Source of the DNA: Dehalococcoidia bacterium
Lineage (GTDB): Bacteria; Chloroflexota; Dehalococcoidia; SM23-28-2; RBG-16-64-32
DNA: 64,000 bases
Assembly: GCA_030649945.1 (NCBI GenBank)
Contig: JAUSFE010000104.1
Coordinates: forward strand, 6,004 to 70,003
Direction of reading: 5' to 3'
Shown in pieces: positions 20,358-34,270 of this stretch. The notes under the pieces were generated by a model that was not told the origin of the DNA, did no database searches, and worked only from the letters and a program-made list of their open reading frames with translations. The position numbers and the translations under genes are program-made. Each line of letters starts with the position of its first letter. Within the stretch, counting starts at the first letter, position 1.

Positions 20358-20434
20358 CGGGGTGTAGCTCAGCCAGGTTAGAGCGCCTGCTTTGGGAGCA
20401 GGAGGGCGGCGGTTCGAATCCGCCCACCCCGACC
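20358..20434 (+). tRNA. tRNA-Pro (anticodon TGG)
   Basis: CGGGGTGTAGCTCAGCCAGGTTAGAGCGCCTGCTTTGGGAGCAGG...GGTTCGAATCCGCCCACCCCGA; 7-bp acceptor stem, TGG in the anticodon loop. Confidence 0.85.
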
Positions 20435-20673
20435 AGCCGCCTCCGCCTCTCACCGCCCTTTACGCTTGTCCGTCCGCCCCGTACCATGGCCCTGTGACAC
20501 AGGTGTTTCCAGCGTTCTCTCATGGCGACTCGTAGCAGCGGGCCACCCGCCTCAGGCGGGCCACCCCACTTCCAGGCCAGGGTGCGCTCCGCCCCAGGCG
20601 GACGGGAGGCCGGCAAGCGCGCGGAGCGCAACCCCCTGCCGGGCGCCGCCGGGCCCGGGAAGCGCCGGACCCC

Positions 20674-23031: not shown

Positions 23032-23967
23032 TCAGCCCGTCAGCGCGCTGGCCGTCCCCACCACCACCTTCGTCCCGTCCGCCTTCTGGCACCAGACGCG
23101 CACGTGCGCGCGCCGCCCGGCGCCGGAGGGCACCACGTCCATGACGTGGCCCAGGCAGCGCACGCTCTCCCCCTGCCAGAGCACGTTCACCAGGTTCACG
23201 TTCATCCGGCCGCCGGCGTACCAGCCTTCGCCGAAGCGGTCCGTCATCAACTCGGAGAGGAAACAGAGGGACATCATGCCCTGCACCACAATGTCCGGGA
23301 AGCCCAGCTTGCGCGCCTCTTCCACGTCGTTGTGGTAGTTCTTGTGCGGACCGGAGAACTTCTGGCACATCTCCAGGCTAATGTGCTTCTCCGCTCCCGC
23401 GAACTCCTCCAGCACCTCGCCCTCGTCCGTCTCAACGCGCCGGTCGGTCCTCTTCTCGCGCTCCTTGTCCACCACTACGCCCTCAGGCTTCGTCTCCAGC
23501 AGGAAGCTCTGGTGCGTGCGCCCGCGGTTCAGGAGCCGCCCGTCCGCGCCGTAGCACGACACCTCCTTCACGATGTAGTCCCGCCCGCGCCGGACATAGC
23601 GGTCCACGATGACCGAACTTGTGGTCGCCGTCTCGCCCACCGTGAGCGGGTGGTACAGCTCCCACTCCTGTCTGGCGTGCAGGTTGCCGTAGATGTTCGG
23701 CAGGTACCAGCGCAGGTCCCTGTACACCTCCGAATGCAGGATGAGCGCCGGCGCCACGGGCCCGCCGAAAGGCGACCGCCCCGTGTACCAGGGATGGAAG
23801 TCCCCCACCGCCTCGCAGTACTGCTGCACCAATTCAGGCGTAATGTCCACTGCCCGCTGCCCGAAGTAGCGGCCGATGAAGTGCTCGCCGGACGCGCTGC
23901 CGGCGCGGAGGCTGCCAAACACATCGTACTCGTACTGGCCAACAACTTGGCGGTTAAGACGGTTCAC
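23032..23967 (-). CDS. Double hot-dog MaoC-like (R)-hydratase/dehydratase; annotated N-terminus is an in-frame RHS-derived fragment
   Basis: Two hot-dog halves; the first ~28 codons (MNRLNRQVVGQYEYDVFGSLRAGSASGE) and ~65 nt of DNA (23921-23985) match the RHS gene at 26517-26580. Confidence 0.7.
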   Translation of the reverse strand: MNRLNRQVVGQYEYDVFGSLRAGSASGEHFIGRYFGQRAVDITPELVQQYCEAVGDFHPWYTGRSPFGGPVAPALILHSEVYRDLRWYLPNIYGNLHARQEWELYHPLTVGETATTSSVIVDRYVRRGRDYIVKEVSCYGADGRLLNRGRTHQSFLLETKPEGVVVDKEREKRTDRRVETDEGEVLEEFAGAEKHISLEMCQKFSGPHKNYHNDVEEARKLGFPDIVVQGMMSLCFLSELMTDRFGEGWYAGGRMNVNLVNVLWQGESVRCLGHVMDVVPSGAGRRAHVRVWCQKADGTKVVVGTASALTG

Positions 23968-24028
23968 CGTCGTTATCGTCGGAACCGAAGCGTCCTGGAG
24001 GCGAGCACGCTCAGGTTGACACTGGTCA

Positions 24029-24289
24029 TTAGGTTGCTCGCCAAGCGCTCCACAAGAAGTACACAGTGGCTATCCAGGCGCCCGCTGAGAATCCCAGAGC
24101 ACGCAACTGAGAGGTAACAGCGAACGAGACTGTTTCGACAACGGCGAGCGTCACCGTCAAAAGGGACAAGCCGATGTACAGGTTCCGGGGAGGACGGGCC
24201 GCCGGAATCCTCTCGCCCCGGAACCCGCCGCGCAAGATAACCAAAATCAGTATCACGCCGGCGACCGTAGAGACAGCGAGGACGGTCAT
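24029..24289 (-). CDS. Small 2-3 TM protein, putative immunity protein for the orphan RHS C-terminal module
   Basis: Hydrophobic 86-aa ORF immediately downstream of, and overlapping, the orphan toxin gene. Confidence 0.35.
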   Translation of the reverse strand: MTVLAVSTVAGVILILVILRGGFRGERIPAARPPRNLYIGLSLLTVTLAVVETVSFAVTSQLRALGFSAGAWIATVYFLWSAWRAT

Positions 24290-24780
24290 GGGCCGCTCCC
24301 GTCAGGAGGAAGGCACTCTTGCTGGTATTCCAGTAGCCCGATCATGATGGTTAGGAACCCTGCCACCGCCAACACTGGCTGCTGGTACACACCGCCAGCG
24401 ATGAGAGCGGCTGCCCCTACGACGAAGAATTCAGCGGCTTCGGGGCACAGCGTAACCCTGCGTATGAACTCGGAGATGTCGGGGTTTGCGGTGAGTAGGG
24501 TTGGCGGCCCCTCCGAATCAAGCCCCGTCGGGTCCACCCGGTTGACCGGGTTGTTCTCCACGTATGCGTACCGGTTCTGCGTCTGCGTACTGAGAAGGGA
24601 GCCTGGGAGCGGGTCTCGCGTCATGAAACGGCCGGTCGCCGGATCATAGTAACGCGCGCGGAGGTACTGAAGCCCGCTCGGCGAATCGGTCTGCTCGCCG
24701 GCGAACTGCCAGTAGTTCGTCGAGCTGCCACCATGCGAGCGAACGGCACCGAAGACGTCGTAGGAGTACGTGTCGGTCAC
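24286..24780 (-). CDS. Orphan RHS C-terminal fragment (RHS core end plus divergent CT domain)
   Basis: ...RARYYDPATGRFMTRDPLPGS...NRYAYVENNPVNRVDPTGLDSE followed by a unique hydrophobic ~80-aa CT. Confidence 0.6.
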   Translation of the reverse strand: MTDTYSYDVFGAVRSHGGSSTNYWQFAGEQTDSPSGLQYLRARYYDPATGRFMTRDPLPGSLLSTQTQNRYAYVENNPVNRVDPTGLDSEGPPTLLTANPDISEFIRRVTLCPEAAEFFVVGAAALIAGGVYQQPVLAVAGFLTIMIGLLEYQQECLPPDGSGP

Positions 24781-24825
24781 CGTCCCGGACGTGTTGAGGC
24801 TGTGACCTCGCGACCCTTCCGAAGA

Positions 24826-25203
24826 TCATTCACGGAAGCGGCGGCCAAATTTCCAGGCAAGACCCAAGAATATGCCCATAGCGATGCTAGTCGGAATAGC
24901 GACGGCCCACTGCCATGCGGTGAAACCGCCAAGGAATCCAAACACAAGGACAATGATAACCAGGGTCGCGGCGGTCATGAGGACGTCGTGGTCACCGGGC
25001 TTCTCGGCTTCTATGTAGGTCGCTGATTCCGGAGCGAGGTATCTTCGGTTGAATATTCGTACGGCTTCGATCAATATGGCCTGCCCGCATCCAATCGACG
25101 CGCCGATTGCCAACCAGAGCCAGAACGGCAAGCCGAGGATAAGCGCGGCCGCCGCCGCCAGCGCCGCGTCAGCCAGCACGACCCAGAGCGCAACGAACCT
25201 CAA
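24826..25203 (-). CDS. Small multi-TM protein, putative immunity protein
   Basis: 125 aa, 3-4 TM helices, sits between orphan RHS modules. Confidence 0.35.
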   Translation of the reverse strand: MRFVALWVVLADAALAAAAALILGLPFWLWLAIGASIGCGQAILIEAVRIFNRRYLAPESATYIEAEKPGDHDVLMTAATLVIIVLVFGFLGGFTAWQWAVAIPTSIAMGIFLGLAWKFGRRFRE

Positions 25204-25688
25204 GCGCTTCGCCTCGCGTCATTCAAACAGGTGACGAGACCGTAGCCGACTGAGAGAAGACCCGCACGGAAGCTGATGGATCGTAACAGCGGCGAGAACT
25301 TCGCGAACTGCAATGGAACGCTCGTCTCGGTCGATGCGTCGATCGCCAACCCCGCGTAGTCGGGCTGGCTCGCATCAATCGCAAGCGCAGCTACGAACAA
25401 CGGAGCACCGACTAGCACCCCCCAAGGTCCGAACGCCGCGAGGGCTGCGGTCGCAAACAGGCTGATTACGAGACCCAAACAATTCAAGGTTAGTGGGAAC
25501 TTGCCCCACGCCTGCCCAACACTACTCTCCGAATCCAGCCCGGTCGGGTCCACGCGGTTTACCGGGTTGTTCTCCACATAAGCATAGCGGTTCTGCGACT
25601 GCGGGCTGAGAGCGGAGCCCCGGACCGGGTCCTGTGTCAGGAACCTGCCGATGCTGGGGTCAGCGTACCACGCCCTGGGGGAGGGCAT
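25200..25688 (-). CDS. Orphan RHS C-terminal module with Gly-rich hydrophobic CT domain
   Basis: PRAWYADPSIGRFLTQDPVRGSALSPQSQNRYAYVENNPVNRVDPTGLDSE plus a hydrophobic CT; the longer ORF upstream of Met100 looks non-coding. Confidence 0.5.
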   Translation of the reverse strand: MPSPRAWYADPSIGRFLTQDPVRGSALSPQSQNRYAYVENNPVNRVDPTGLDSESSVGQAWGKFPLTLNCLGLVISLFATAALAAFGPWGVLVGAPLFVAALAIDASQPDYAGLAIDASTETSVPLQFAKFSPLLRSISFRAGLLSVGYGLVTCLNDARRSA

Positions 25689-25696
25689 CGAGGTCC

Positions 25697-26008
25697 CTAC
25701 AGACTCGCTAATCTGATATTGGCAAACAGGAAAAAAAGCACCGCTACGACGAGCAAAATGAGCCCATGAACTAGCACCAAAAGAGAGTATCTCGGTGTCC
25801 AAGGAGTATCTGCCCACCGCGAGCTTTTTTCGGTTCCCCACACAAACTGAAGGAGCGACCGCCATCGTCCCTCCGAAGTTATCCATAGTGCGGTGAGAAG
25901 GAACAACAACGCCATCAGCAGCACAGAGTACGCGGTGCCGACGAACAGAATTAGAAGGATGATAACAGCCGACAACACGCCCCATGCAGCAAAAACAGAC
26001 AATGTCAT
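25697..26008 (-). CDS. Small multi-TM protein, putative cognate immunity protein of the full-length RHS toxin
   Basis: 103 aa, 3 TM helices, immediately downstream of the rhs stop. Confidence 0.4.
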   Translation of the reverse strand: MTLSVFAAWGVLSAVIILLILFVGTAYSVLLMALLFLLTALWITSEGRWRSLLQFVWGTEKSSRWADTPWTPRYSLLVLVHGLILLVVAVLFFLFANIRLASL

Positions 26009-26061
26009 CCTGCTTAGCAGCCCCTTGGCCCGGCCTTAGCCGCCTGCTTTCTTTCCGCCAC

Positions 26062-29000
26062 CTAATCTACACACCCTGAGTCCGCAATTACGACAACGCC
26101 CCCTATTAGAACCGGCAACCCAACGACTTCTAAGAGCACAAGACCAGCAAATTGTGTCCCAGGACTAAACAGGGCTATGAGACCTGGAACTTCAATCAGG
26201 AGCCCTAGGCCAACCAACAGTCCCCCCGTCACCGCCTTGGCTACGTTGCAGCCCCCGCCACCTTCCGAATCCAGCCCCGTCGGGTCAACCCGGTTCACCG
26301 GGTTGTTCTGGACATACGCATAGCGGTTCTGCGACTGCGGGCTGAGAGCGGAGCCGGGGAGCGGGTCCTGCGTCAAGAATCTGCCGATGGTGGGGTCGTA
26401 CCAGCGGTTTCGCAGGTAGTAGAGGCCGCTCTGGGTGTCGCGCGCCTTATTGTCGAACTGTTGGCCCGTGAAGAGGAACGGCTCGCCCGTGGCACTTCCC
26501 ACGCGCAGGTTGCCAAAGACATCGTACTCGTACTGGCCAACAACCTGGCGGGTAGCACGGTTCACCGTCGTTATCGTCGAGCCCAGCCCATCCGGGAAGT
26601 AGTAGCGCTGGTTGCCGGCCGCGTCCGTGGCCGAGATGAGACCGAGTCCATAAACGTACGTCACAGGCGTAGGCGAGACAACGCTTCCCGTGGTGAATAT
26701 CGTACCATCGTCCTGCAGGATCTGCGCCCTCTTTTCCTGTAGCACAAGCGGCAGGCCAGAACCCACATCCCAGGTGTAGTTGGTGACGAACTTGCCGGTC
26801 TTTTGCGACATCCTCAGCCCATCTGCATTGTACTTGAAGTATCGCGGGCAGGTCTGGTTGAACTGCGGGATGTACTGCAGGATGTCTGTGAGGTTTATTC
26901 TGTTGTCATTGTTGAAGTCGAAAAACGGATTATAGGGCGGGTTGGGGCCAGTCGCGTTGTACACAGGTATGAACATGAGGACATCGTTCAGACCTACCCT
27001 CCCGTCATCGTTCAGGTCATAACACGGACTGGTAGCGGGAGGAGGTAGAGTGGAAGCCGGATCGAAGCCATTGAACCGGATCCGGTCCAGGCGGTTCTCG
27101 CCGTCGTACACGTAAGCTTCGTTTCCTCGGGCCGTCAGGTTCCCGTTGGCATCGTAGGTATATGGCGTCGATCCTGCTAGGGTCAGTTGGTTAGCTGCGT
27201 CGTACGTGTACTGTGTGGTGCCCCCGGAAACTTGCTGGGTACGGTTGCCGACGGCGTCATAACTGTATTGGGCGAATGTTGAATCCGCGTAGTCCACCCT
27301 CTTCAGGTGGTAGAGGTCGTCGTACTGATAAGTTTCGGGGGCACGACCGGTCCTGGTCATTTGAGTGCGGTAACCCGCGGCGTCCGTATTGTAGATGAAG
27401 TCCTCGGTGTAGAAGTTGCCGGGGTTGTGCGTGACATCTGTGACCTGACGGGCGGCGTCGTACTGGTAGCTAACGGACCCCACGCTTCCCGTGTAGGTAG
27501 TGGTCAGCAATGTTCCGTCATCGTAGTAGCTGTATGAGGTTATCTTGTTCAGCCAGTCGGTCACCGTGGCCATACTGCCGTCGGCGTTGTAGGTGTATGA
27601 GACGATCTTCCCGTCCGGGTAGTTGATTTTGGTTCGCTGGCCCGGGTACGGCGCACCAGGTCCGCTGGTTGAGTCGTACTGGTAACTCACGCTTCCTGAT
27701 GGACACACTGGCGTCGCCGGTCCGGCCCACGTGCATGACAAGCGATTCAGTGCATCGTACGTGTAGTCCGTCTCCCTGGTCGAGAGGGTATTCGCCGATG
27801 AGTCGTACGTTTTCTCGACCATCGACTTGCGATTGCCGACGTCGTCGTAGGTGTAGTCAACCGAATCGACTCGCGTAGTGGCGCCGGCATTCCAGTGCTC
27901 GAGCTGCGTCAGGTGATTCAGCTTGTCGTAGGTTATATACTTGGTGACGCGTCCGAGCGCGTCCGTGCGCTGCGTGAGGTTCGATGCGGAGTCGTAGGGC
28001 TGATACGTGGTCGTGCGTCCAAGCGCATCAGTTGTCGACTGCAAGCGGTTCAGCGCGTCATACACATTGAGCGTTGACGGACAGCCGTCGTCGATGACGC
28101 CGTCAAGCGGACTGTCGTTATCCACTCCGTTTCCGGTCCCCGAGCCACACGCATTGGCAATGCTGGCCTCCGACGTGCCGAAGGCCTGGCGATTAGCGTC
28201 GGTGATCGATATCCGGTTGCCGTTCGCGTCATAGGCATAGGTCGTCGATTTATTGAGCGCGTCGACGACCTGCACAAGGTGATCCCCGGGATCATAATTG
28301 TACTGAGTAGTCTTACCATTGGCATCAGTAACGGTCTTAAGATTCCCCTTCGCATCATACGTGTTGATCGTAGATGGGCACCCGTCATCAGCAACCGTGT
28401 CATCCCCAGGATCATCGTTCACACCGTTGCCCGTCCCGGAAGTGCCGCATTGCAGGCCGCTCTCGGCAGAGACGCCAGCCACTTGCCGCAACGGGTTGAG
28501 AACCTTGGTCACGTTGTTCTGAGCATCGTACACATAAGAACTCGTGTGTCCTAACTCGTCTGTCTTCGAGGTGACGCGGCCGGCAGCGTCGGACGTAAAG
28601 GTCGTCTTTGGCGAGCCGCTGCCGGAGAATCTTGGGTTGACGACGCCGGTCAGGTTCTTGTAGGCGTCGTTGTACTCGAAGATTGTCTTGTTGCCTGTGC
28701 ACGGATCAGTCGGCCCAGGTGGAACAATCAAGTCCGTCGATTCAACTGAGGCGATAGGCTGTCCCGCGCTATTGAATGTGGCGCAGGTCAGGGCCTTGAC
28801 GGTCCCATTTTGAGCGTCTTTCCGAACGGTCCTCGTGAGATTGCCGGTCGTCGATGAATCATAGATGTACTGGGTGTACCGGTTGAGGGGATCGGTCTCG
28901 CTGAGGATCTCGTTTAGGGCGTTGTACGTGTTTGTCCAGACCTTGCCGTTCTGAATCAACGCGCAGTTGGCGTCGGTGTTCAGGGCATCTACCTTCTGCG

Positions 29001-30948
29001 TTAAGTTGCCCTTAGCGTCGTAGCCAAATGCTGTCTTCTGACCGAGCGGATCTGTGACACAGGTCTTGCTGCTGTGACTGTCGTACTGGTATTGAGTGAC
29101 GCCTCCCAGCGGATCCTGCACGCGCGTGACACGGAAGAAGTTGTCGAACTTGTAGACGGTGTCGTAGCCGCGAGGATCCCGAAGGGTCGTTTGCCCGCCG
29201 GCCGGCGTCTGGTAGAAGAACTCCGTAATGGGTATTCCGTATAGAGCGACAGACGGATCGGTCCTTGCGAGAGTGCAATCGGGCTCCGCCGGTGGCGTCG
29301 AAGATGGCGCGCCGAACTGTTTATATATTCGGTTAGACGTGTCGTAGCAATTCTTTGCAATCAGACGGCTGTTCGCGTCGGTGATCTTGGTCAGGAGATG
29401 GTTGGACGGCGTGGCGTAGTCAAAAGTTGTGATGGCACCCCCGAGTGACGTCAATGTAAGCAGGTTGCCTGACCCGTCGTACGTTATTGCAACTGTTCGA
29501 GTGTTCGGAGATGGCAGGGTGTCAGTAATTGTCGAGAGGCGTCCGCCCGAATACGCGAACGTCAGTTTCCGGCGGTCGGGGTCTGTGCCAGGCTCTTGGA
29601 CGTACTGAAGCTTGCCAAGATCTGGACCGGATGTGAAGTACGCAAGGGTCAGAGTGTTCGAGTTCCGATCGACGATCTGCGTCAGTTTCCCGGCCGAGTC
29701 GAATGTGTAGGTCATTTGGACAGTGGAGACGAGCGTGTAGTTTCCGCCGGCGGAAGTCAGAACGTCAGCTATGTCCGGAGGGCCAAAGTAGGAACCTGAC
29801 GAATTGAGGTATCTGTCTTCTCGACCGTCGGCGTTTACCACGATCACATCCGAACCGTCGAACACCAGATGCATATCAAAGTTGTCCGTCCAACCGAAGC
29901 CCAATCGACCATCGATCGATGCCCGCGAGGAGTTGTAGGTTCGAGTGAAACCCAGTGGAGGCCCAACTGTCTGTATGTTGATGTCGGTGTTCTGGTGGGT
30001 GTAATTCCCGAAGGCGAGATTAACCGGATCAAGCGAGGTGGCTGATGCCCCAAACGACGGCGCGCCGTTGTGGTATTCCACGTAATTTGAGAGCTGGCAT
30101 GGGACCTCCCAGGCCACAATCCTTGAGGGAAAGCCAGTCTCGAATACGTTGGTCGACCACATTGCGCACAAGGGAGCAAACGTGACTCTATCGAAGTCTC
30201 CATCAGCATAGAGTCTGTTTACCGAGATGAGAGTGCCGGTGTATGAACCGTCGAGATCGTACTGCTGGAAGTGCCGAGCAGAAGGAGGGCTAAAGATAGC
30301 TGTGAACAACCAGAAGTCATCGCCGCTGGCGGCCACACTGGTGGCGCACGAACCAAAGACGTCCCCTTGATCAAGCACCTGCCCGGACTGCGAAATCTGA
30401 AAGACTGTCTTGCTGTTCTGGCTCATTGCGAAGAACGCTCCGGATGTCGGATCATAGGCAAGGCCAGCGGGTTGGAAGGTGAATCCTGTTGAGCAACTTG
30501 AAGAGGTTGTTCCTGTTAGGTCGACAGGGAACTTGAAGCTAAGAACTCCGGTGGCTCGATCGATGGTGTAGAAACGTTCCCCATCCGTATCTGGTGCTCT
30601 TCCCCAGAGTTCAGTGCCGTCCCAGGTCAGTGCGCGCAGTGTTATGGCAGGATTGGTTTGTACAGTGCCGATCAGGGATCCGTCTTGGGGGTTAATTCTA
30701 AAGAGTCTGGTGTCAGCGTCAGCCGTCCACCATAAGTCTGTCCCGTCGAAAGCAAGCCCTCGACCGGACTGGCTAGTGGTGGAGGGTGCTGCATAGTTCT
30801 TGAGGACTGATCCAGTCGCCGCTTCGGCAACCAGTCCGCGCCCAATCAGCAAGAGTCCAAAAACAAACACCAGGACAACGGGAGCGCGTATCCGCACGGG
30901 ACACCTCCAAAGTTGGCAGCCGGGGGAGATAGAAGAGGACGGGAACAT
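26062..30948 (-). CDS. RHS/YD-repeat polymorphic toxin (1628 aa) with signal peptide, embedded dockerin-like Ca-binding domain and Gly-rich hydrophobic C-terminal toxin domain
   Basis: Dozens of YD repeats (YDxxGN/RL), RHS core end DPxGL; dockerin DLNDDGRVGLNDVL/DFNNDNRINLTDIL at ~26878-27027; GC ~55%. Confidence 0.85.
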   Translation of the reverse strand: MFPSSSISPGCQLWRCPVRIRAPVVLVFVFGLLLIGRGLVAEAATGSVLKNYAAPSTTSQSGRGLAFDGTDLWWTADADTRLFRINPQDGSLIGTVQTNPAITLRALTWDGTELWGRAPDTDGERFYTIDRATGVLSFKFPVDLTGTTSSSCSTGFTFQPAGLAYDPTSGAFFAMSQNSKTVFQISQSGQVLDQGDVFGSCATSVAASGDDFWLFTAIFSPPSARHFQQYDLDGSYTGTLISVNRLYADGDFDRVTFAPLCAMWSTNVFETGFPSRIVAWEVPCQLSNYVEYHNGAPSFGASATSLDPVNLAFGNYTHQNTDINIQTVGPPLGFTRTYNSSRASIDGRLGFGWTDNFDMHLVFDGSDVIVVNADGREDRYLNSSGSYFGPPDIADVLTSAGGNYTLVSTVQMTYTFDSAGKLTQIVDRNSNTLTLAYFTSGPDLGKLQYVQEPGTDPDRRKLTFAYSGGRLSTITDTLPSPNTRTVAITYDGSGNLLTLTSLGGAITTFDYATPSNHLLTKITDANSRLIAKNCYDTSNRIYKQFGAPSSTPPAEPDCTLARTDPSVALYGIPITEFFYQTPAGGQTTLRDPRGYDTVYKFDNFFRVTRVQDPLGGVTQYQYDSHSSKTCVTDPLGQKTAFGYDAKGNLTQKVDALNTDANCALIQNGKVWTNTYNALNEILSETDPLNRYTQYIYDSSTTGNLTRTVRKDAQNGTVKALTCATFNSAGQPIASVESTDLIVPPGPTDPCTGNKTIFEYNDAYKNLTGVVNPRFSGSGSPKTTFTSDAAGRVTSKTDELGHTSSYVYDAQNNVTKVLNPLRQVAGVSAESGLQCGTSGTGNGVNDDPGDDTVADDGCPSTINTYDAKGNLKTVTDANGKTTQYNYDPGDHLVQVVDALNKSTTYAYDANGNRISITDANRQAFGTSEASIANACGSGTGNGVDNDSPLDGVIDDGCPSTLNVYDALNRLQSTTDALGRTTTYQPYDSASNLTQRTDALGRVTKYITYDKLNHLTQLEHWNAGATTRVDSVDYTYDDVGNRKSMVEKTYDSSANTLSTRETDYTYDALNRLSCTWAGPATPVCPSGSVSYQYDSTSGPGAPYPGQRTKINYPDGKIVSYTYNADGSMATVTDWLNKITSYSYYDDGTLLTTTYTGSVGSVSYQYDAARQVTDVTHNPGNFYTEDFIYNTDAAGYRTQMTRTGRAPETYQYDDLYHLKRVDYADSTFAQYSYDAVGNRTQQVSGGTTQYTYDAANQLTLAGSTPYTYDANGNLTARGNEAYVYDGENRLDRIRFNGFDPASTLPPPATSPCYDLNDDGRVGLNDVLMFIPVYNATGPNPPYNPFFDFNNDNRINLTDILQYIPQFNQTCPRYFKYNADGLRMSQKTGKFVTNYTWDVGSGLPLVLQEKRAQILQDDGTIFTTGSVVSPTPVTYVYGLGLISATDAAGNQRYYFPDGLGSTITTVNRATRQVVGQYEYDVFGNLRVGSATGEPFLFTGQQFDNKARDTQSGLYYLRNRWYDPTIGRFLTQDPLPGSALSPQSQNRYAYVQNNPVNRVDPTGLDSEGGGGCNVAKAVTGGLLVGLGLLIEVPGLIALFSPGTQFAGLVLLEVVGLPVLIGGVVVIADSGCVD

Positions 30949-30992
30949 GGTTGCGTGACGGACACCATGCCGTCAACTCTGGCCTGAACCCC

Positions 30993-31035
30993 AAAAAAAG
31001 AAAAACCGCCGGCCCAGACCCGATATGGGTCTGGT
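30993..31035 (-). terminator. Rho-independent terminator on the minus strand ending the TolB-like operon
   Basis: Hairpin CCAGACCC-ATATC-GGGTCTGG followed on the minus strand by a TTTTTCTTTTTTT run. Confidence 0.6.
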
Positions 31036-31217
31036 TCGGCGCTTCAAACCAGAGACAGTCGCAGCCGACATGGCCACACCCCCAATCTTCAGTTCGTCGT
31101 CATTGTAGTCAACTGTCAGGACTTGTCAAGAGGGCGGTCTGCCTCATAAGTTCGGTAACCCGCACTTTTGAGGCATCACGTGGCGATCCGCCCCGACGGG
31201 CGGGCGTCTGCCCGCGC

Positions 31218-32384
31218 TCACGGCTGCAGCGCCTCTGACTGGCCCGTGTCGTTCGTCTGCCGCACCAGTCCCGTGCCGTCCGCGTTCACGGTGTAGACGT
31301 CCCGCCGGCCGTCGTGGCCGTAGGAGAAGGCGAGGCGGGAGCCGTCCGGAGACCAGGCCGGCCAGGAGGTGAAGCCCTCGTCGCGCGTGATCCGGACCTG
31401 GCCCGTGCCGTCCGCGTTCGCCACGTAGACCTCCGTGTTGAAGTCCCGGTTGGAGATGAAGGCCAGGCGCGTCCCGTCCGGGGACCAGCTGGGCCAGATG
31501 TCCGCGCGCGGCGCCGACGTGACACGCGTGAGGAAGGAGAACTGCGTGTCCACGACGTAGACATCCGCACTGGCGTCCCGGTCGGAGACGAACGCCAGGC
31601 GGACGCCGTCCGGGGACCACGCGGGGTAGACATCGTCCAGCGGGCGCACGCTCAGGTTCACCTGCCGGGAGCCGTCCGCGTCCATAACGTAGATCTCGCC
31701 GTTACCGTCGCGGTTGGACTCGAAAGCGATGCGCGTGCCGTCCGGGGACCAGCTGGCGGAGAAGTCGTGGCCCGGCCCGCGGGTCAGCCGCTTGACGTTA
31801 CCGCCGTCGCCGTCCATCACGAAGAGGTCCAGGTCGCCGCCGCGCGCAGAGCCGAAGGCGATGCGTGTGCCGTCCGGCGACCAGGAGTAGGGGATATCGA
31901 TCCCCCGCTCGTGAGTCAGGCGGCGGACGTCGCTCCCGTCCGCGTTCATCGTGTAGACCTCGCCGTCGCCGTCCCTCTCGGAGTAGAAGGCGATGCGGGC
32001 GCCGTCCGGGGACCAGATGGGGAAGGCGTCGGGCCGGGGGTCGTCGGTGAGCCGCACCGGCCCAGAGCCACCCAGCAGCATCACGTAGATGTCCACGTTG
32101 TCGTCGCGGTCCCGGATGTTGAAGTTGCGGTCCGAGTAGAAGGCCAGGCGAGTGCCGTCCGGGGACCAGACGGGGGCGCTGTCCCAGCGCAGGCTCTGCG
32201 TCAGGGGGTAGGGCCGGCTGTTGCCGGTGTTCGGTATGCGGATCTCGTACTCGCCGTCGCGCCGCGGCAGGAAGATCAACCTCGTGGGCGCGCCTCCGGC
32301 GCCCCCGCAGCCCAGGACAGCGAGCAGGCCTGCCAAAGCCAGCAGGAGCAGGCCGGCGCGGACGGCCCGGAGCGCGGTGGTCAT
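31218..32384 (-). CDS. TolB-like WD40/PD40 beta-propeller lipoprotein
   Basis: Repeated WSPDGTRLAF.SDRDG..EIYVMDADGS units; signal/lipobox ...LAVLGCGG. Confidence 0.75.
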   Translation of the reverse strand: MTTALRAVRAGLLLLALAGLLAVLGCGGAGGAPTRLIFLPRRDGEYEIRIPNTGNSRPYPLTQSLRWDSAPVWSPDGTRLAFYSDRNFNIRDRDDNVDIYVMLLGGSGPVRLTDDPRPDAFPIWSPDGARIAFYSERDGDGEVYTMNADGSDVRRLTHERGIDIPYSWSPDGTRIAFGSARGGDLDLFVMDGDGGNVKRLTRGPGHDFSASWSPDGTRIAFESNRDGNGEIYVMDADGSRQVNLSVRPLDDVYPAWSPDGVRLAFVSDRDASADVYVVDTQFSFLTRVTSAPRADIWPSWSPDGTRLAFISNRDFNTEVYVANADGTGQVRITRDEGFTSWPAWSPDGSRLAFSYGHDGRRDVYTVNADGTGLVRQTNDTGQSEALQP

Positions 32385-34270
32385 CACCGCGGCCGCCATA
32401 CGGGGTCCGAATCCGCGGCCGGGTCGTTGGTGAGCCGCGTCAGGCCGGAGCCGTCGGGGTTGACGGCGTAGATCTCCTGGCTGCCGTCCCGGTCCGACAC
32501 AAACGCCAGCCGCGAGCCGTCTGACGACCACCGCGGCGTCGTCTCCCCGGCGGGGGACTGCGTCAGGTTCGTTAGCGCGCTGCCGTCCGCGTTGACCAGG
32601 TACACCTCGCTGTTCCCGTCGCGATCGGAGTTGAAGGCGATGCGCGCGCCGTCCGGCGACGAGGCCGGCGAGGAGTCCCTGCCGGGGCCGTCCGTGACCC
32701 GGACGAGGCCGGTGCCGTCCACGTTGATCAGGTACACGTCGCGGCTCCCGTCCCGCTCGGACTCGAAGGCCAGCCGCGCGCCGTCGGGAGACCAGACGGG
32801 GTCCTCGTCCGGGCCGGGGCTGTCCGTCAGCCGCCGGAGCCCGCCGCCGTCCGGCCGCATCACGTAGACGTCGCTGTCCCCGTCGCGCTCCGACGCGAAG
32901 GCGATGAGCGCGCCGTCGGGCGACCAGGCGGCCGCGTAGTCCCGTCCCCGCGATTCCGTCAGCCGCCTCACCTCCGTGCCGTCCGCCGTCATGACGTACA
33001 GCTCCGGGAAGCGGTCGCGCTCGGACTCGAAGACGATCTGCGCCCCGTCCGGCGACCAGCGGGGGTGGTTGTCCGGCACCCGGTTGCTGGTCAGCCGCAC
33101 CAGGTTAGAGCCGTCCGCGTCCATGACGTATATCTCGTCATTGCCGTCACGGTTGCTCTGGAAGGCCAGGCGGACGCCGTCGGGCGACCAGGCGGGAGAC
33201 TGGTCCACGGACGGCCTGTCTGTGAGGCGGGTCAGGGGGGAACCGTTGGCGTCCACGATCTCCACCGTCAGCCGCCCGCTCTGGTTGGAAGAGAAGGCGA
33301 TGCGCAGACCGTCCGGCGACCACGCCGGCGCGAACAACGCGGACGACTTGCGCGTGGCCAATTGCGCTGCCCCGGAGCCGTCCAGATTCATCTTGTAGAT
33401 ATCGCGGCGGCCGTCCCGGTCCGAGTAGAAGACGATGCGCGAGCCATCCGGCGACCAGTCCGGATCTCCGTCCGCAGACGGGTCGTTGGTTAGCTGTGTG
33501 AGCCCCGTGCCGTCCACGTTGATGGTGAAGATGTCAGTGTTGCCGGCGCGGTCGGAGGCGAAGGCGATGGTGGAGCCGTCCGGCGACCAGGCCGGCTCCA
33601 CATCCGCGGCCGGACTGTCTACAAGACGCACCGGGTCGGAGCCGTCTGCGTTCATGAGGTAGATGTCCAGGTTGCCGTCCCGGGTGGACTCGAAGGCGAT
33701 GCGCGAGCCGTCCGGCGACCAGTCCGGGAAGCTGTCCGCCGCGGCGTTGTCTGTGAGCCGGGTCTCGCCGGAGCCATCGGTGTTAGTCAGGTAGATATCG
33801 GTGTTGCCATCGCGCTCGGAGACGAAGGCGATGCGCTTCCCGTCCGGTGACCACGCCGGCAGGCTGTCCAGACCGGGGTTAGCGGTGAGACGGACCTGGC
33901 TGGAGCCATCCGAGTTCATGGTGTAGATGTCCGCGTCCCCCTCACGGGCGGAGCCAAAGGCGATGCGCGCGCCGTCCGGGGACCAACTGGCATAGCCGTT
34001 GGTAAAGCCGGTTCTGCCGGAGAGGCTCGTGACGCCGTAGCCGAACTCGCTCACGGTGTAGATCTGCGTTCGCACCTGCCCAGCGGACACGTAAGCCAGG
34101 AAGTCCGCCCCCGCGCGCGTGGGAGTGGGCTGCGGCGTGCCCGCCTGGATCGGCTCGCCGCTCTCTTCCCCGCAGGCCGCCGCCGTCAACGCAAGCACGA
34201 CGAGCAGCAGACACGCTGCGGCCGGGGCGGCGGCTCGTGAGGCGGGCCTGGTCAGGGACAGGGAAGACAA
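32384..34270 (-). CDS. TolB-like WD40/PD40 beta-propeller lipoprotein (628 aa, ~12 repeats)
   Basis: Same PD40 repeat units; lipoprotein signal ...LTAAACGEE; stop overlaps the downstream paralogue's start. Confidence 0.75.
   Translation of the reverse strand: MSSLSLTRPASRAAAPAAACLLLVVLALTAAACGEESGEPIQAGTPQPTPTRAGADFLAYVSAGQVRTQIYTVSEFGYGVTSLSGRTGFTNGYASWSPDGARIAFGSAREGDADIYTMNSDGSSQVRLTANPGLDSLPAWSPDGKRIAFVSERDGNTDIYLTNTDGSGETRLTDNAAADSFPDWSPDGSRIAFESTRDGNLDIYLMNADGSDPVRLVDSPAADVEPAWSPDGSTIAFASDRAGNTDIFTINVDGTGLTQLTNDPSADGDPDWSPDGSRIVFYSDRDGRRDIYKMNLDGSGAAQLATRKSSALFAPAWSPDGLRIAFSSNQSGRLTVEIVDANGSPLTRLTDRPSVDQSPAWSPDGVRLAFQSNRDGNDEIYVMDADGSNLVRLTSNRVPDNHPRWSPDGAQIVFESERDRFPELYVMTADGTEVRRLTESRGRDYAAAWSPDGALIAFASERDGDSDVYVMRPDGGGLRRLTDSPGPDEDPVWSPDGARLAFESERDGSRDVYLINVDGTGLVRVTDGPGRDSSPASSPDGARIAFNSDRDGNSEVYLVNADGSALTNLTQSPAGETTPRWSSDGSRLAFVSDRDGSQEIYAVNPDGSGLTRLTNDPAADSDPVWRPR

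Follow-up and report, generated by a model that had tools for sequence, protein, structure and literature searches.

The window analysed here is a stretch of 64,000 nt (64 kb) from contig JAUSFE010000104.1 of a Dehalococcoidia (Chloroflexota) genome, and it carries on its minus strand, at positions 23875-30948, a rearrangement hotspot (RHS) polymorphic-toxin locus with an orphan array. This island comprises one intact gene for a 1628-aa RHS protein, two 5'-truncated orphan modules, three small genes for proteins with 3-4 predicted transmembrane (TM) segments, one of which is located 3' of each C-terminal (CT) tip, and a fourth rhs fragment. The data support the view that the tips are membrane-inserting and are neutralised by the small membrane proteins in the role of immunity proteins, and from the same features we infer toxicity, pore formation, and protection. 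As a whole, the array is probably a toxin system that is exported by the Sec pathway independently of a type VI secretion system (T6SS), carries membrane-depolarising hairpin payloads together with membrane immunity proteins, and exchanges its cassettes. All positions given below refer to the window, and all features are located on the minus strand unless stated otherwise.

The main rhs gene (26062-30948) is an uninterrupted open reading frame (ORF), and its product is a bona fide RHS protein. In Pfam it matched RHS_repeat (E-value 9.5e-68, in eight stretches), DUF6531 (1.6e-18), and Dockerin_1 (1.4e-5), whereas NCBIfam recognised YD_repeat (TIGR01643, 1.8e-38) and Rhs_assc_core (TIGR03696, 2.5e-21, aa 1475-1559). 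The shell matched Rhs shells in the PDB with E-values down to 2e-25, including 7q97 and the shell of Tse5 (8cp6, 2e-21). The RHS-associated core, which is the aspartyl autoprotease region (26272-26526), ends in DPTGL and contains the motif QDPLPGS-(x21)-VDPTGL, whose two Asp residues are invariant in the alignment of the main gene, the orphans, and their relatives; cleavage of the tip after DPTGL by the aspartyl-protease core is thus to be expected from the motif. The N-terminus (aa 1 to ~44, 30817-30948) has the appearance of a Sec signal peptide, with an Arg-rich n-region, the h-region APVVLVFVFGLLLIG, and a cleavage-like site AEA/A. All 22 Cys residues of the protein form consecutive pairs, and the 20 residues outside the tip bracket surface inserts, as would be expected of an extracellular, disulfide-bonded protein. 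No PAAR family was detected in the main protein by Pfam or NCBIfam, and family scans of the 64-kb window revealed no PAAR, VgrG, T6SS, or type VII secretion system (T7SS) genes, so that the locus does not encode a T6SS Rhs effector. By contrast, every testable defining feature of the RHS polymorphic-toxin class with an orphan array is present. A first-pass annotation, made from the sequence alone, had proposed a full-length RHS protein of 1628 aa, two orphan modules that keep the DPxGL motif, and three small multi-TM candidate immunity genes, and each of these elements was recovered by the analyses described here. Exact-sequence look-ups returned no record of the 1628-aa RHS protein or of the small gene that follows it (imm1).

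The three tips are short, hydrophobic, and mutually unrelated, as no cross-family matches were obtained between them. CT1, the tip of the main gene (26065-26271), consists of 69 aa with a mean Kyte-Doolittle hydropathy of +1.26 and a Gly content of 22%; CT2, the tip of orphan 1 (25203-25535), of 111 aa (hydropathy +0.67, Gly 9%); and CT3, the tip of orphan 2 (24289-24519), of 77 aa (hydropathy +0.45, Gly 10%). Each of them has at least two predicted TM segments. AlphaFold2 modelled CT1 from its single sequence as two helices (residues 6-33 and 40-63, pLDDT 80) and CT3 as helices 13-24, 26-44, and 48-68 (pLDDT 79), and both tips are accordingly predicted to be simple helical hairpins. The suggestion that the tips form pores or depolarise membranes draws on their hydropathy and on these modelled hairpins. 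No known soluble enzymatic toxin domain or fold (nuclease, deaminase, NADase, or ADP-ribosyltransferase) was found in the tips with Pfam, NCBIfam, or Foldseek. When searched in isolation, they gave no Pfam family above the cut-off, no match to PDB sequences at E ≤ 10, and no Foldseek match against the PDB at E < 1, where generic helical hairpins were the only structures retrieved. A match to DUF3040 (21.7 bits versus a cut-off of 24.7) was rejected as sub-threshold and as that of a generic TM hairpin. The description of the tips in the first-pass annotation as short, Gly-rich, hydrophobic segments that are neither nucleases nor deaminases therefore holds for length, hydrophobicity, TM segments, and the lack of a soluble enzymatic fold, but for Gly content it applies to CT1 only, since CT2 and CT3 (9-10%) are at the level of the RHS body (8.9%). 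Glycine zippers are not a feature of these tips either: loose matches to the patterns GxxxGxxxG or [GAS]xxxGxxx[GAS] numbered 0-1 in each tip of the window, the CT3 family had none, and no Gly-zipper family of Pfam matched the isolated tips.

A feature that had escaped the first-pass annotation, as had the fourth rhs fragment, is a pair of Cys residues in the tips. Exactly two Cys occur in nine of nine hydrophobic tips of this lineage, which represent five unrelated families, and they are placed one just before the first TM helix and the other just after the last; in CT1 these are Cys8 and Cys67, which flank the two-helix hairpin. In the family alignments neither residue varies, even though 35-70% of the other positions differ. 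All five CT3 members, the distant protein P0005 included, have the spacing C-43-C, and CT1 has C-58/59-C. A test of the Cys span, applied post hoc, gave p = 0.002. In the AlphaFold2 models the two Cys lie on either side of the helix pair, where the hairpin is open, and a disulfide bond may thus staple the tip hairpin. Acidic residues are also conserved inside the helices, namely in the motifs LLE[VI]VG of CT1 and PEAAEF and YQQEC of CT3.

Each tip is followed 0-53 nt downstream by a multi-TM ORF, and start and stop codons overlap in two of the three cases. The candidate immunity gene for CT1, imm1 (25697-26008), encodes 103 aa with ~3 TM segments, and the G + C content at third codon positions (GC3) exceeds that at second positions in its frame. 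The product of imm2 (24826-25203) has 125 aa and ~4 TM segments; its TTG start overlaps the TGA stop of orphan 1 (TTGA), and its GC3 is 0.69. The product of imm3 (24029-24289) has 86 aa and ~3 TM segments, and its ATG overlaps the stop of orphan 2 (ATGA). The coding frames of the three genes are backed by GC3, imm2 being the weakest gene call among them, and none of the three products matched a Pfam or NCBIfam family.

The two orphans are 5'-truncated core-CT modules that lie downstream of the main gene and have core homology in common with it, which are the defining features of an rhs orphan array. Orphan 1 (25200-25688) consists of a truncated core of 51 aa (TIGR03696 positions 37-76, i.e., half of the core) and the CT2 tip, and orphan 2 (24286-24780) of a complete core of 87 aa (positions 1-76, 2.6e-23) and the CT3 tip; both cores end in DPTGL. 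A longer ORF of 261 aa (25200-25985) was considered for orphan 1 and rejected as an over-extension, because its 5' third has the GC3 of a wrong frame (0.43) and overlaps imm1, which is in the right frame. On the DNA level, the cores form a repeat family (D1) of 200 nt with 64-74% identity, which rises locally to 83-92% over 84-126 nt, and the cores of orphan 1 and the main gene have an identical run of 40 nt in common. The main gene, the orphans, and their relatives cease to be homologous exactly after DPTGLDSE, in protein as well as in DNA. A fourth rhs fragment (23875-23981), a pre-core scar containing 'STITTVNRLNRQVVGQYEYDVFGSLRAGSASGE', closes the array distally; with 26473-26579 it shows 84% identity (repeat family D3), and phmmer matched it to core residues 1-39 (E-value 1e-9). 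Identical sequences are on record: orphan 2 is 100% identical to P0002, listed by NCBI as 'MAG: RHS repeat-associated core domain-containing protein [Dehalococcoidia bacterium]', a Logan assembly (L084) contains an identical 1.8-kb copy of a stretch of the locus, and the read set SRR13727527 carries the identical locus.

Relatives of the tips are few. An exhaustive HMMER profile search with the CT3 tip against 1.84 billion cluster representatives yielded four hits, namely the protein of the window itself, P0003, the distant P0005 (E-value 9e-6), and P0004, a low-complexity repeat protein that was discarded as a false hit. With three credible members, the own protein included, among 1.84 billion representatives, tip families of the CT3 type must be very rare, and four homologs of CT3 are known in all. 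Word-indexed homology searches with CT1 and CT2 found no tip homologs, but these negatives are weak evidence, since the search with CT1 also missed a CT1-like orphan on the contig L085.

Three other contigs showed that tips and small ORFs are conserved as pairs. In L083, a hydrophobic tip of a novel type and a TM ORF of 91 aa precede homologs of CT3 and imm3 (phmmer E-values 3e-23 and 5e-21). On L085, homologs of CT3 and imm3 are followed by a longer orphan with a CT1 homolog (3.7e-16) and, directly downstream of it, an imm1 homolog, which was recovered in two frames (phmmer 3e-18 and 6e-15); a truncated orphan and P0001 come after this CT1/imm1-like module. The split of this imm1 homolog reflects either a frameshift or an assembly error, and the immunity gene may be decaying in L085. 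L086 carries homologs of CT3 and imm3, followed by the divergent CT3-like tip of P0005 and a divergent 105-aa TM ORF that keeps the RFRP motif and similarity in the second TM segment (E-value 0.017). An imm3 homolog is thus found directly downstream of the CT3 homolog on all three contigs, and the expectation implicit in the first-pass annotation that the small ORFs are conserved together with the CT modules proved correct for two of the three pairs, CT1/imm1 and CT3/imm3. Across the five CT3/imm3 pairs, the divergences of tips and immunity candidates were correlated (Pearson r = 0.64, p = 0.05, n = 10 pairs that are not independent of each other). The cassette order on these contigs differs from that in the window, and CT1, the tip of the main gene in the window, belongs to an orphan on L085, which is consistent with shuffling of cassettes by recombination in the core. 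The first module of L085 was also considered as the 3' end of a full-length main rhs gene, which would have proven a tip swap, but this was rejected because the upstream sequence is not RHS-like and because the module has the truncation point of orphan 2, 'TDTYS[YH]DVFG'. Two orphan modules of L085 (809-960 and 2152-2290 of that contig) have in common a 5' flank that is not in the RHS frame, 'TAALRPLTRREPTFWPAG[NS]QRYYFPDALGST', and because of this common flank the orphans appear to have been duplicated or displaced together with a frameshifted upstream stretch of rhs.

A scan of a genome collection with the last 445 aa of the RHS protein gave two loci, of which one was useful. This locus (L001), from another metagenome-assembled genome (MAG) of the Dehalococcoidia, is the closest genomic relative and encodes a 95-aa tip followed by a 74-aa TM ORF. 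Its tip and small ORF were evaluated as homologs of CT1 and imm1 and rejected, as the similarities were not significant (E-values 0.27-0.74); the tip families thus share architecture but no detectable ancestry. A hydrophobic mini-tip is present in every intact module of the lineage, i.e., in three of three modules in the window, in L001, in both modules of L083 and of L086, and in the two complete modules of L085, which in addition has a 33-aa tip. As a background set, 80 metagenomic loci with at most 57% core identity were collected by a core alignment scan and provided 49 unique complete tips. No tip homologs were found among these 80 loci. The 49 tips have a median length of 170 aa and a median hydropathy of -0.34, and only one of them is short with at least two TM segments (L003), and only one, a 39-aa Ala-rich tail, reaches a hydropathy of 0.45. 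In L003 (694-1130 of that locus), six Cys accompany the two predicted TM segments of a tip of 133 aa, and a TM ORF of 94 aa comes next. In seven other background loci with unrelated RHS proteins (L017, L026, L035, L037, L045, L051, and L082), a Gly/Ala-rich TM helix stands right after DPxG[EL] and is followed by a soluble domain of 150-290 aa; this helix may be a membrane-entry segment in front of an enzymatic toxin.

In the main protein, downstream of the signal peptide, a region of ~255 aa (30049-30816) matches no Pfam family and is weakly similar to a beta-propeller (S-layer YVTN propeller 1l0q, E-value 0.025). It is followed by the RHS N-terminal plug region, recognised as DUF6531 (aa 307-380, 29809-30030). 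A type-I dockerin-like, Ca-binding insert (aa 1310-1361, 26866-27021; Dockerin_1 with 25.6 bits versus a cut-off of 22.9) is flanked by Cys1309 and Cys1367, and no cohesin partner for it was seen in the window. The shell furthermore contains two Asp-rich repeats, 'GTGNGV(D/N)(D/N)D...DDGCPS' (~28080-28450), with Cys834/857 and Cys934/956, which resemble Ca-binding loops.

The G + C content is 0.55-0.62 within the island (~24000 to ~31000) and 0.65-0.74 outside, so that the low-G + C region described in the first-pass annotation is real. GC3 ranges from 0.58 to 0.75 in all genes of the island but from 0.87 to 0.91 in the flanking host genes, which points to a foreign origin of the island and marks the rhs array as horizontally acquired in this Dehalococcoidia genome. 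At its distal boundary, a host gene for a hot-dog/MaoC-like protein (23032-23967; Pfam FAS1_DH_region, GC3 0.91) has a chimeric 5' end: its first 28 codons and its sole in-frame start codons derive from the fourth rhs fragment by in-frame fusion, and the RHS homology gives way to FAS1_DH_region precisely at residue 30. It looks as if the hot-dog gene had lost its own 5' end and a deletion scar had created the chimeric N-terminus. The Logan copy L084 carries the same call of a 311-aa hot-dog gene. A tRNA-Pro(TGG) gene lies on the plus strand at 20358-20435, 3.4 kb past the distal end of the island, and no integrase or direct repeat ties this tRNA to the island.

At the other end, a long GC-rich hairpin followed by U5CU7 on the minus strand (an A-run on the plus strand) resembles an intrinsic terminator (30993-31041; fold z-score -2.6) and coincides with the step in G + C content at ~31000. 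The first-pass annotation had described a terminator with an A-tract bounding the locus at 30993-31035; the hairpin and U-run exist, but they are located 45 nt 5' of the rhs ATG on the coding strand and hence do not terminate the rhs locus. Most simply, the element marks where the host PD40 operon ends and where the insertion has its proximal boundary. It begins ~60 nt after a near-consensus sigma-70-type promoter-like site (31102-31129; TTGACA-16-TACAAT, 11 of 12 positions), and the promoter-hairpin unit as a whole (30993-31129) may encode a small RNA of ~100 nt, act as an attenuating leader, or simply represent the terminator of the PD40 operon. An Rfam scan of 23500-31500 gave no match, this unit included. 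Directly upstream of the island are two adjacent genes with host-like G + C content for PD40/WD40-like beta-propeller proteins of 437 and 628 aa with 7 and 12 repeats, respectively (31218-34270), and a DNA repeat with a period of 132 nt lies in this region (31242-31497). Outside the island, the window encodes PD40 propeller proteins, an ATP-binding cassette (ABC) transporter, pyrimidine-biosynthesis enzymes, and molybdopterin oxidoreductases.

Taken together, these features suggest how the system may work. The 1628-aa RHS protein would be exported via its N-terminal Sec signal peptide, its YD-repeat cocoon would fold around its own 69-aa C-terminal tip, and the aspartyl-protease core of the cocoon would then cut the tip loose at DPTGL, as the motif and general knowledge of the family imply. 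The payload would be non-enzymatic, a hydrophobic two-helix hairpin whose open end is probably closed by a disulfide between the two invariant Cys. Upon contact with a neighbouring cell, the hairpin may enter the cytoplasmic membrane from outside, oligomerise to a pore or ionophore, and dissipate the membrane potential, in analogy to the CT of Tse5 and to the ionophore toxins of contact-dependent growth inhibition (CDI) systems; a membrane-acting payload makes sense for a carrier that lacks an injection apparatus. The cognate protein with 3-4 TM segments encoded directly downstream would bind the toxin in the membrane and protect the producer and its kin. In this scheme the orphans are displaced or reserve toxin-immunity cassettes, orphan immunity genes widen the protection, and core homology of 130-270 nt with ~80-90% identity would allow recombination to swap the tip on the main gene, the array ending in the fourth rhs scar that is fused to the neighbouring host gene.

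Several observations weigh against this reading. Toxicity, depolarisation, processing, export, and protection are all deduced from sequence, and a Sec-secreted cocoon would have to release a 60-aa peptide at the target membrane. Expression of the main gene is uncertain, because the only good promoter-like site is separated from the rhs start by an intrinsic terminator, and because no obvious Shine-Dalgarno sequence precedes the rhs ATG. The tips essentially lack canonical GxxxGxxxG zippers and have no detectable homology to Tse5-CT, CDI ionophores, or glycine-zipper toxins. No homologs were found for the CT2 tip or for imm2, so that this pair stands on its ORF structure, and the imm1 homolog of L085 (1588-1898 of that contig) is frameshifted.

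The same architecture would also be seen if the tips blocked a specific membrane protein of the target cell, such as a transporter, the translocon, or a cell-wall precursor flippase, without forming a pore, and if the small TM proteins were decoys or competitive binders. The conserved acidic residues within the helices of CT1 and CT3, the strict C-43-C spacing, which could reflect a specific binding surface, and the absence of canonical glycine zippers would all be compatible with such a mode of action. However, no target can be named, and five unrelated tip families that are alike only in hydrophobicity and the Cys bracket fit a generic activity on the bilayer better than five specific targets. 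Characterised hydrophobic polymorphic toxins (Tse5-CT, CDI ionophores, and EsxX) moreover depolarise membranes (PMC9637101, PMC11630599, PMC12744356), and we consider a specific protein target improbable. Still less credit is given to the idea that the tips are not toxins but serve in membrane anchoring or translocation, e.g., as what is left after loss of a soluble toxin, and that the small ORFs are unrelated or spurious. The seven metagenomic loci with a TM helix ahead of a soluble domain provide a model for it, as does the T6SS effector Tde1, which needs a glycine-zipper segment for translocation (PMC10240207), but the homologs of the tips end at conserved positions (CLPP... and DSGCV[DH]) and are not ragged, the pairs of tips and small ORFs are co-conserved on other contigs and show translational coupling, and polymorphism at a fixed junction together with orphan cassettes is the signature of toxin/immunity diversification.

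Least probable of all is decay, in which case a horizontally transferred rhs element would persist as a non-expressed relic with no current function. A 4.9-kb ORF without stop or frameshift is unlikely to last in the absence of selection, none of the three small ORFs and neither of the two orphan tips is disrupted, and the relatives, despite 35-70% divergence, retain both Cys and the helix cores. The position of the terminator 45 nt 5' of the rhs ATG, the missing Shine-Dalgarno sequence, the distal deletion scar fused to a host gene, the frameshift in the imm1 homolog of L085, and a composition that is not ameliorated would suit a relic, as would the 5' truncation of the orphans, but truncated orphans are the normal state of rhs arrays. 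The reading of the locus as a Sec-exported array with membrane-depolarising hairpins thus remains the probable one. An extension of it, which we put forward tentatively and rate as possible rather than probable, is that a Dehalococcoidia-specific clade of Sec-exported RHS proteins has specialised wholly on Cys-stapled two-helix hairpins of ~45-85 residues, that the capsule serves solely for solubilising delivery, that the hairpins correspond in function to circular or class II bacteriocins, and that at least five unrelated hairpin families circulate as cassettes, each of them co-diversifying with an immunity protein of 2-4 TM segments. If so, the use of RHS proteins without T6SS or T7SS would be explained, because such a toxin would need to reach only the outer face of the cytoplasmic membrane of its target. 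If these hairpins are toxins, no smaller RHS toxin would be known to us.

The role in which RHS toxins are understood best is that of enzyme-carrying T6SS cargo, and we know of no characterised RHS membrane toxin other than Tse5. The locus described here suggests that the principle of the cocoon as a chaperone is also used in an uncultured lineage of the Chloroflexota, in combination with Sec export and with far smaller, disulfide-bracketed hairpins. If this is true, the tips, at ~60 aa, would provide studies of pore formation and intramembrane neutralisation with membrane toxins that are minimal and can be synthesised, together with the immunity proteins that match them; the locus would also demonstrate the use of RHS weaponry by monoderm or T6SS-less bacteria and document competition systems in the Dehalococcoidia, a group known almost exclusively from metagenomes. 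If not, it would be an ordinary example of an rhs orphan array. Its value lies in the rare, minimal, Cys-bracketed hairpins as candidate toxins and the matched membrane immunity candidates in an uncultured lineage.

A hydrophobic Rhs tip is not unprecedented, as Tse5 of Pseudomonas aeruginosa (RhsP1, PA2684) has a pore-forming CT and an immunity protein, Tsi5, with two TM segments; the Tse5 shell 'functions as a chaperone to encapsulate' this integral-membrane CT (PMC10684867, PMC9637101). The Tse5/Tsi5 pair and the locus in the window have in common the Rhs cocoon, the DPxGL core, a hydrophobic, non-enzymatic tip, and a small TM protein encoded downstream. Tse5, however, is a VgrG4-dependent T6SS effector with a PAAR-like N-terminus, whereas the protein described here lacks PAAR and starts with a predicted Sec signal peptide, nor are there T6SS genes in its vicinity. 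Tse5-CT comprises 149 aa with several TM and amphipathic helices, in contrast to tips of 69-111 aa that are mostly simple two-helix hairpins. Further differences are the Cys bracket, the membrane type of every cassette of the lineage, and the host phylum. The PDB chain of Tse5 matches the core only (aa 1497-1559) and the tips have no PDB match at E ≤ 10, no direct comparison with Tse5-CT having been made. We know of no description of a Cys bracket in Tse5-CT.

WapA/WapI of Bacillus subtilis is a precedent for the carrier, since WapA is an RHS/YD-repeat protein with a signal peptide that mediates contact-dependent competition without a T6SS and has a polymorphic CT and an adjacent immunity gene. 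WapA also carries repeats that bind the cell wall, and both its tRNase tips and their immunity proteins are soluble. The locus in the window differs from this Gram-positive YD-repeat example (PMC10684867) by its membrane-hairpin tips, its membrane immunity candidates, the beta-propeller-like N-terminal region, and the dockerin-like insert. Hydrophobic helical tips that depolarise membranes, small membrane immunity proteins (CdiI), and diversification by cassettes are known from the CDI ionophore toxins of the CdiA-CT EC93 group (PMC11630599). These toxins are larger, however, depend on CdiB/CdiA two-partner secretion in Proteobacteria, and have a separate, receptor-specific entry domain, and a Pfam scan of the isolated window tips revealed no sequence similarity to them. 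Small, helical, depolarising C-terminal toxin domains with membrane-associated immunity also occur in EsxX and TelE (LXG/T7SS) and in CdzC/CdzD (PMC12744356, PMC5380434), but these toxins are defined by the GxxxGxxxG zipper, which is at most marginal in the tips described here, and their export route and carrier domain differ as well.

With regard to the organisation of the array, orphan immunity and exchangeability have been described for enterobacterial rhs loci (PMC10539506). The arrays of E. coli, Salmonella, and Serratia resemble the one in the window in having a main gene, 5'-truncated core-CT orphans with their own immunity genes, and a recombining core, but mostly encode nucleases, NADases, and deaminases with soluble immunity proteins and are T6SS-dependent, whereas every cassette in the window is a predicted membrane hairpin. 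In work on orphan recombination in Salmonella, the homology of the rhs core reportedly permits recombination. On the level of the payload, the tips are reminiscent of the class II and circular bacteriocins of Gram-positive bacteria, which are hydrophobic, helical, permeabilising peptides of 40-70 aa with ends constrained by cyclisation or disulfides and with small membrane immunity proteins. As these bacteriocins have leader sequences and dedicated ABC exporters and are not the C-terminus of an RHS protein, the analogy is a functional one only. Among the ~150 toxin families of a 2012 census of polymorphic toxins, a single pore-forming domain is recorded (PMC3482391), and by that account membrane payloads such as those proposed for the Dehalococcoidia array belong to a minor and little-explored class.

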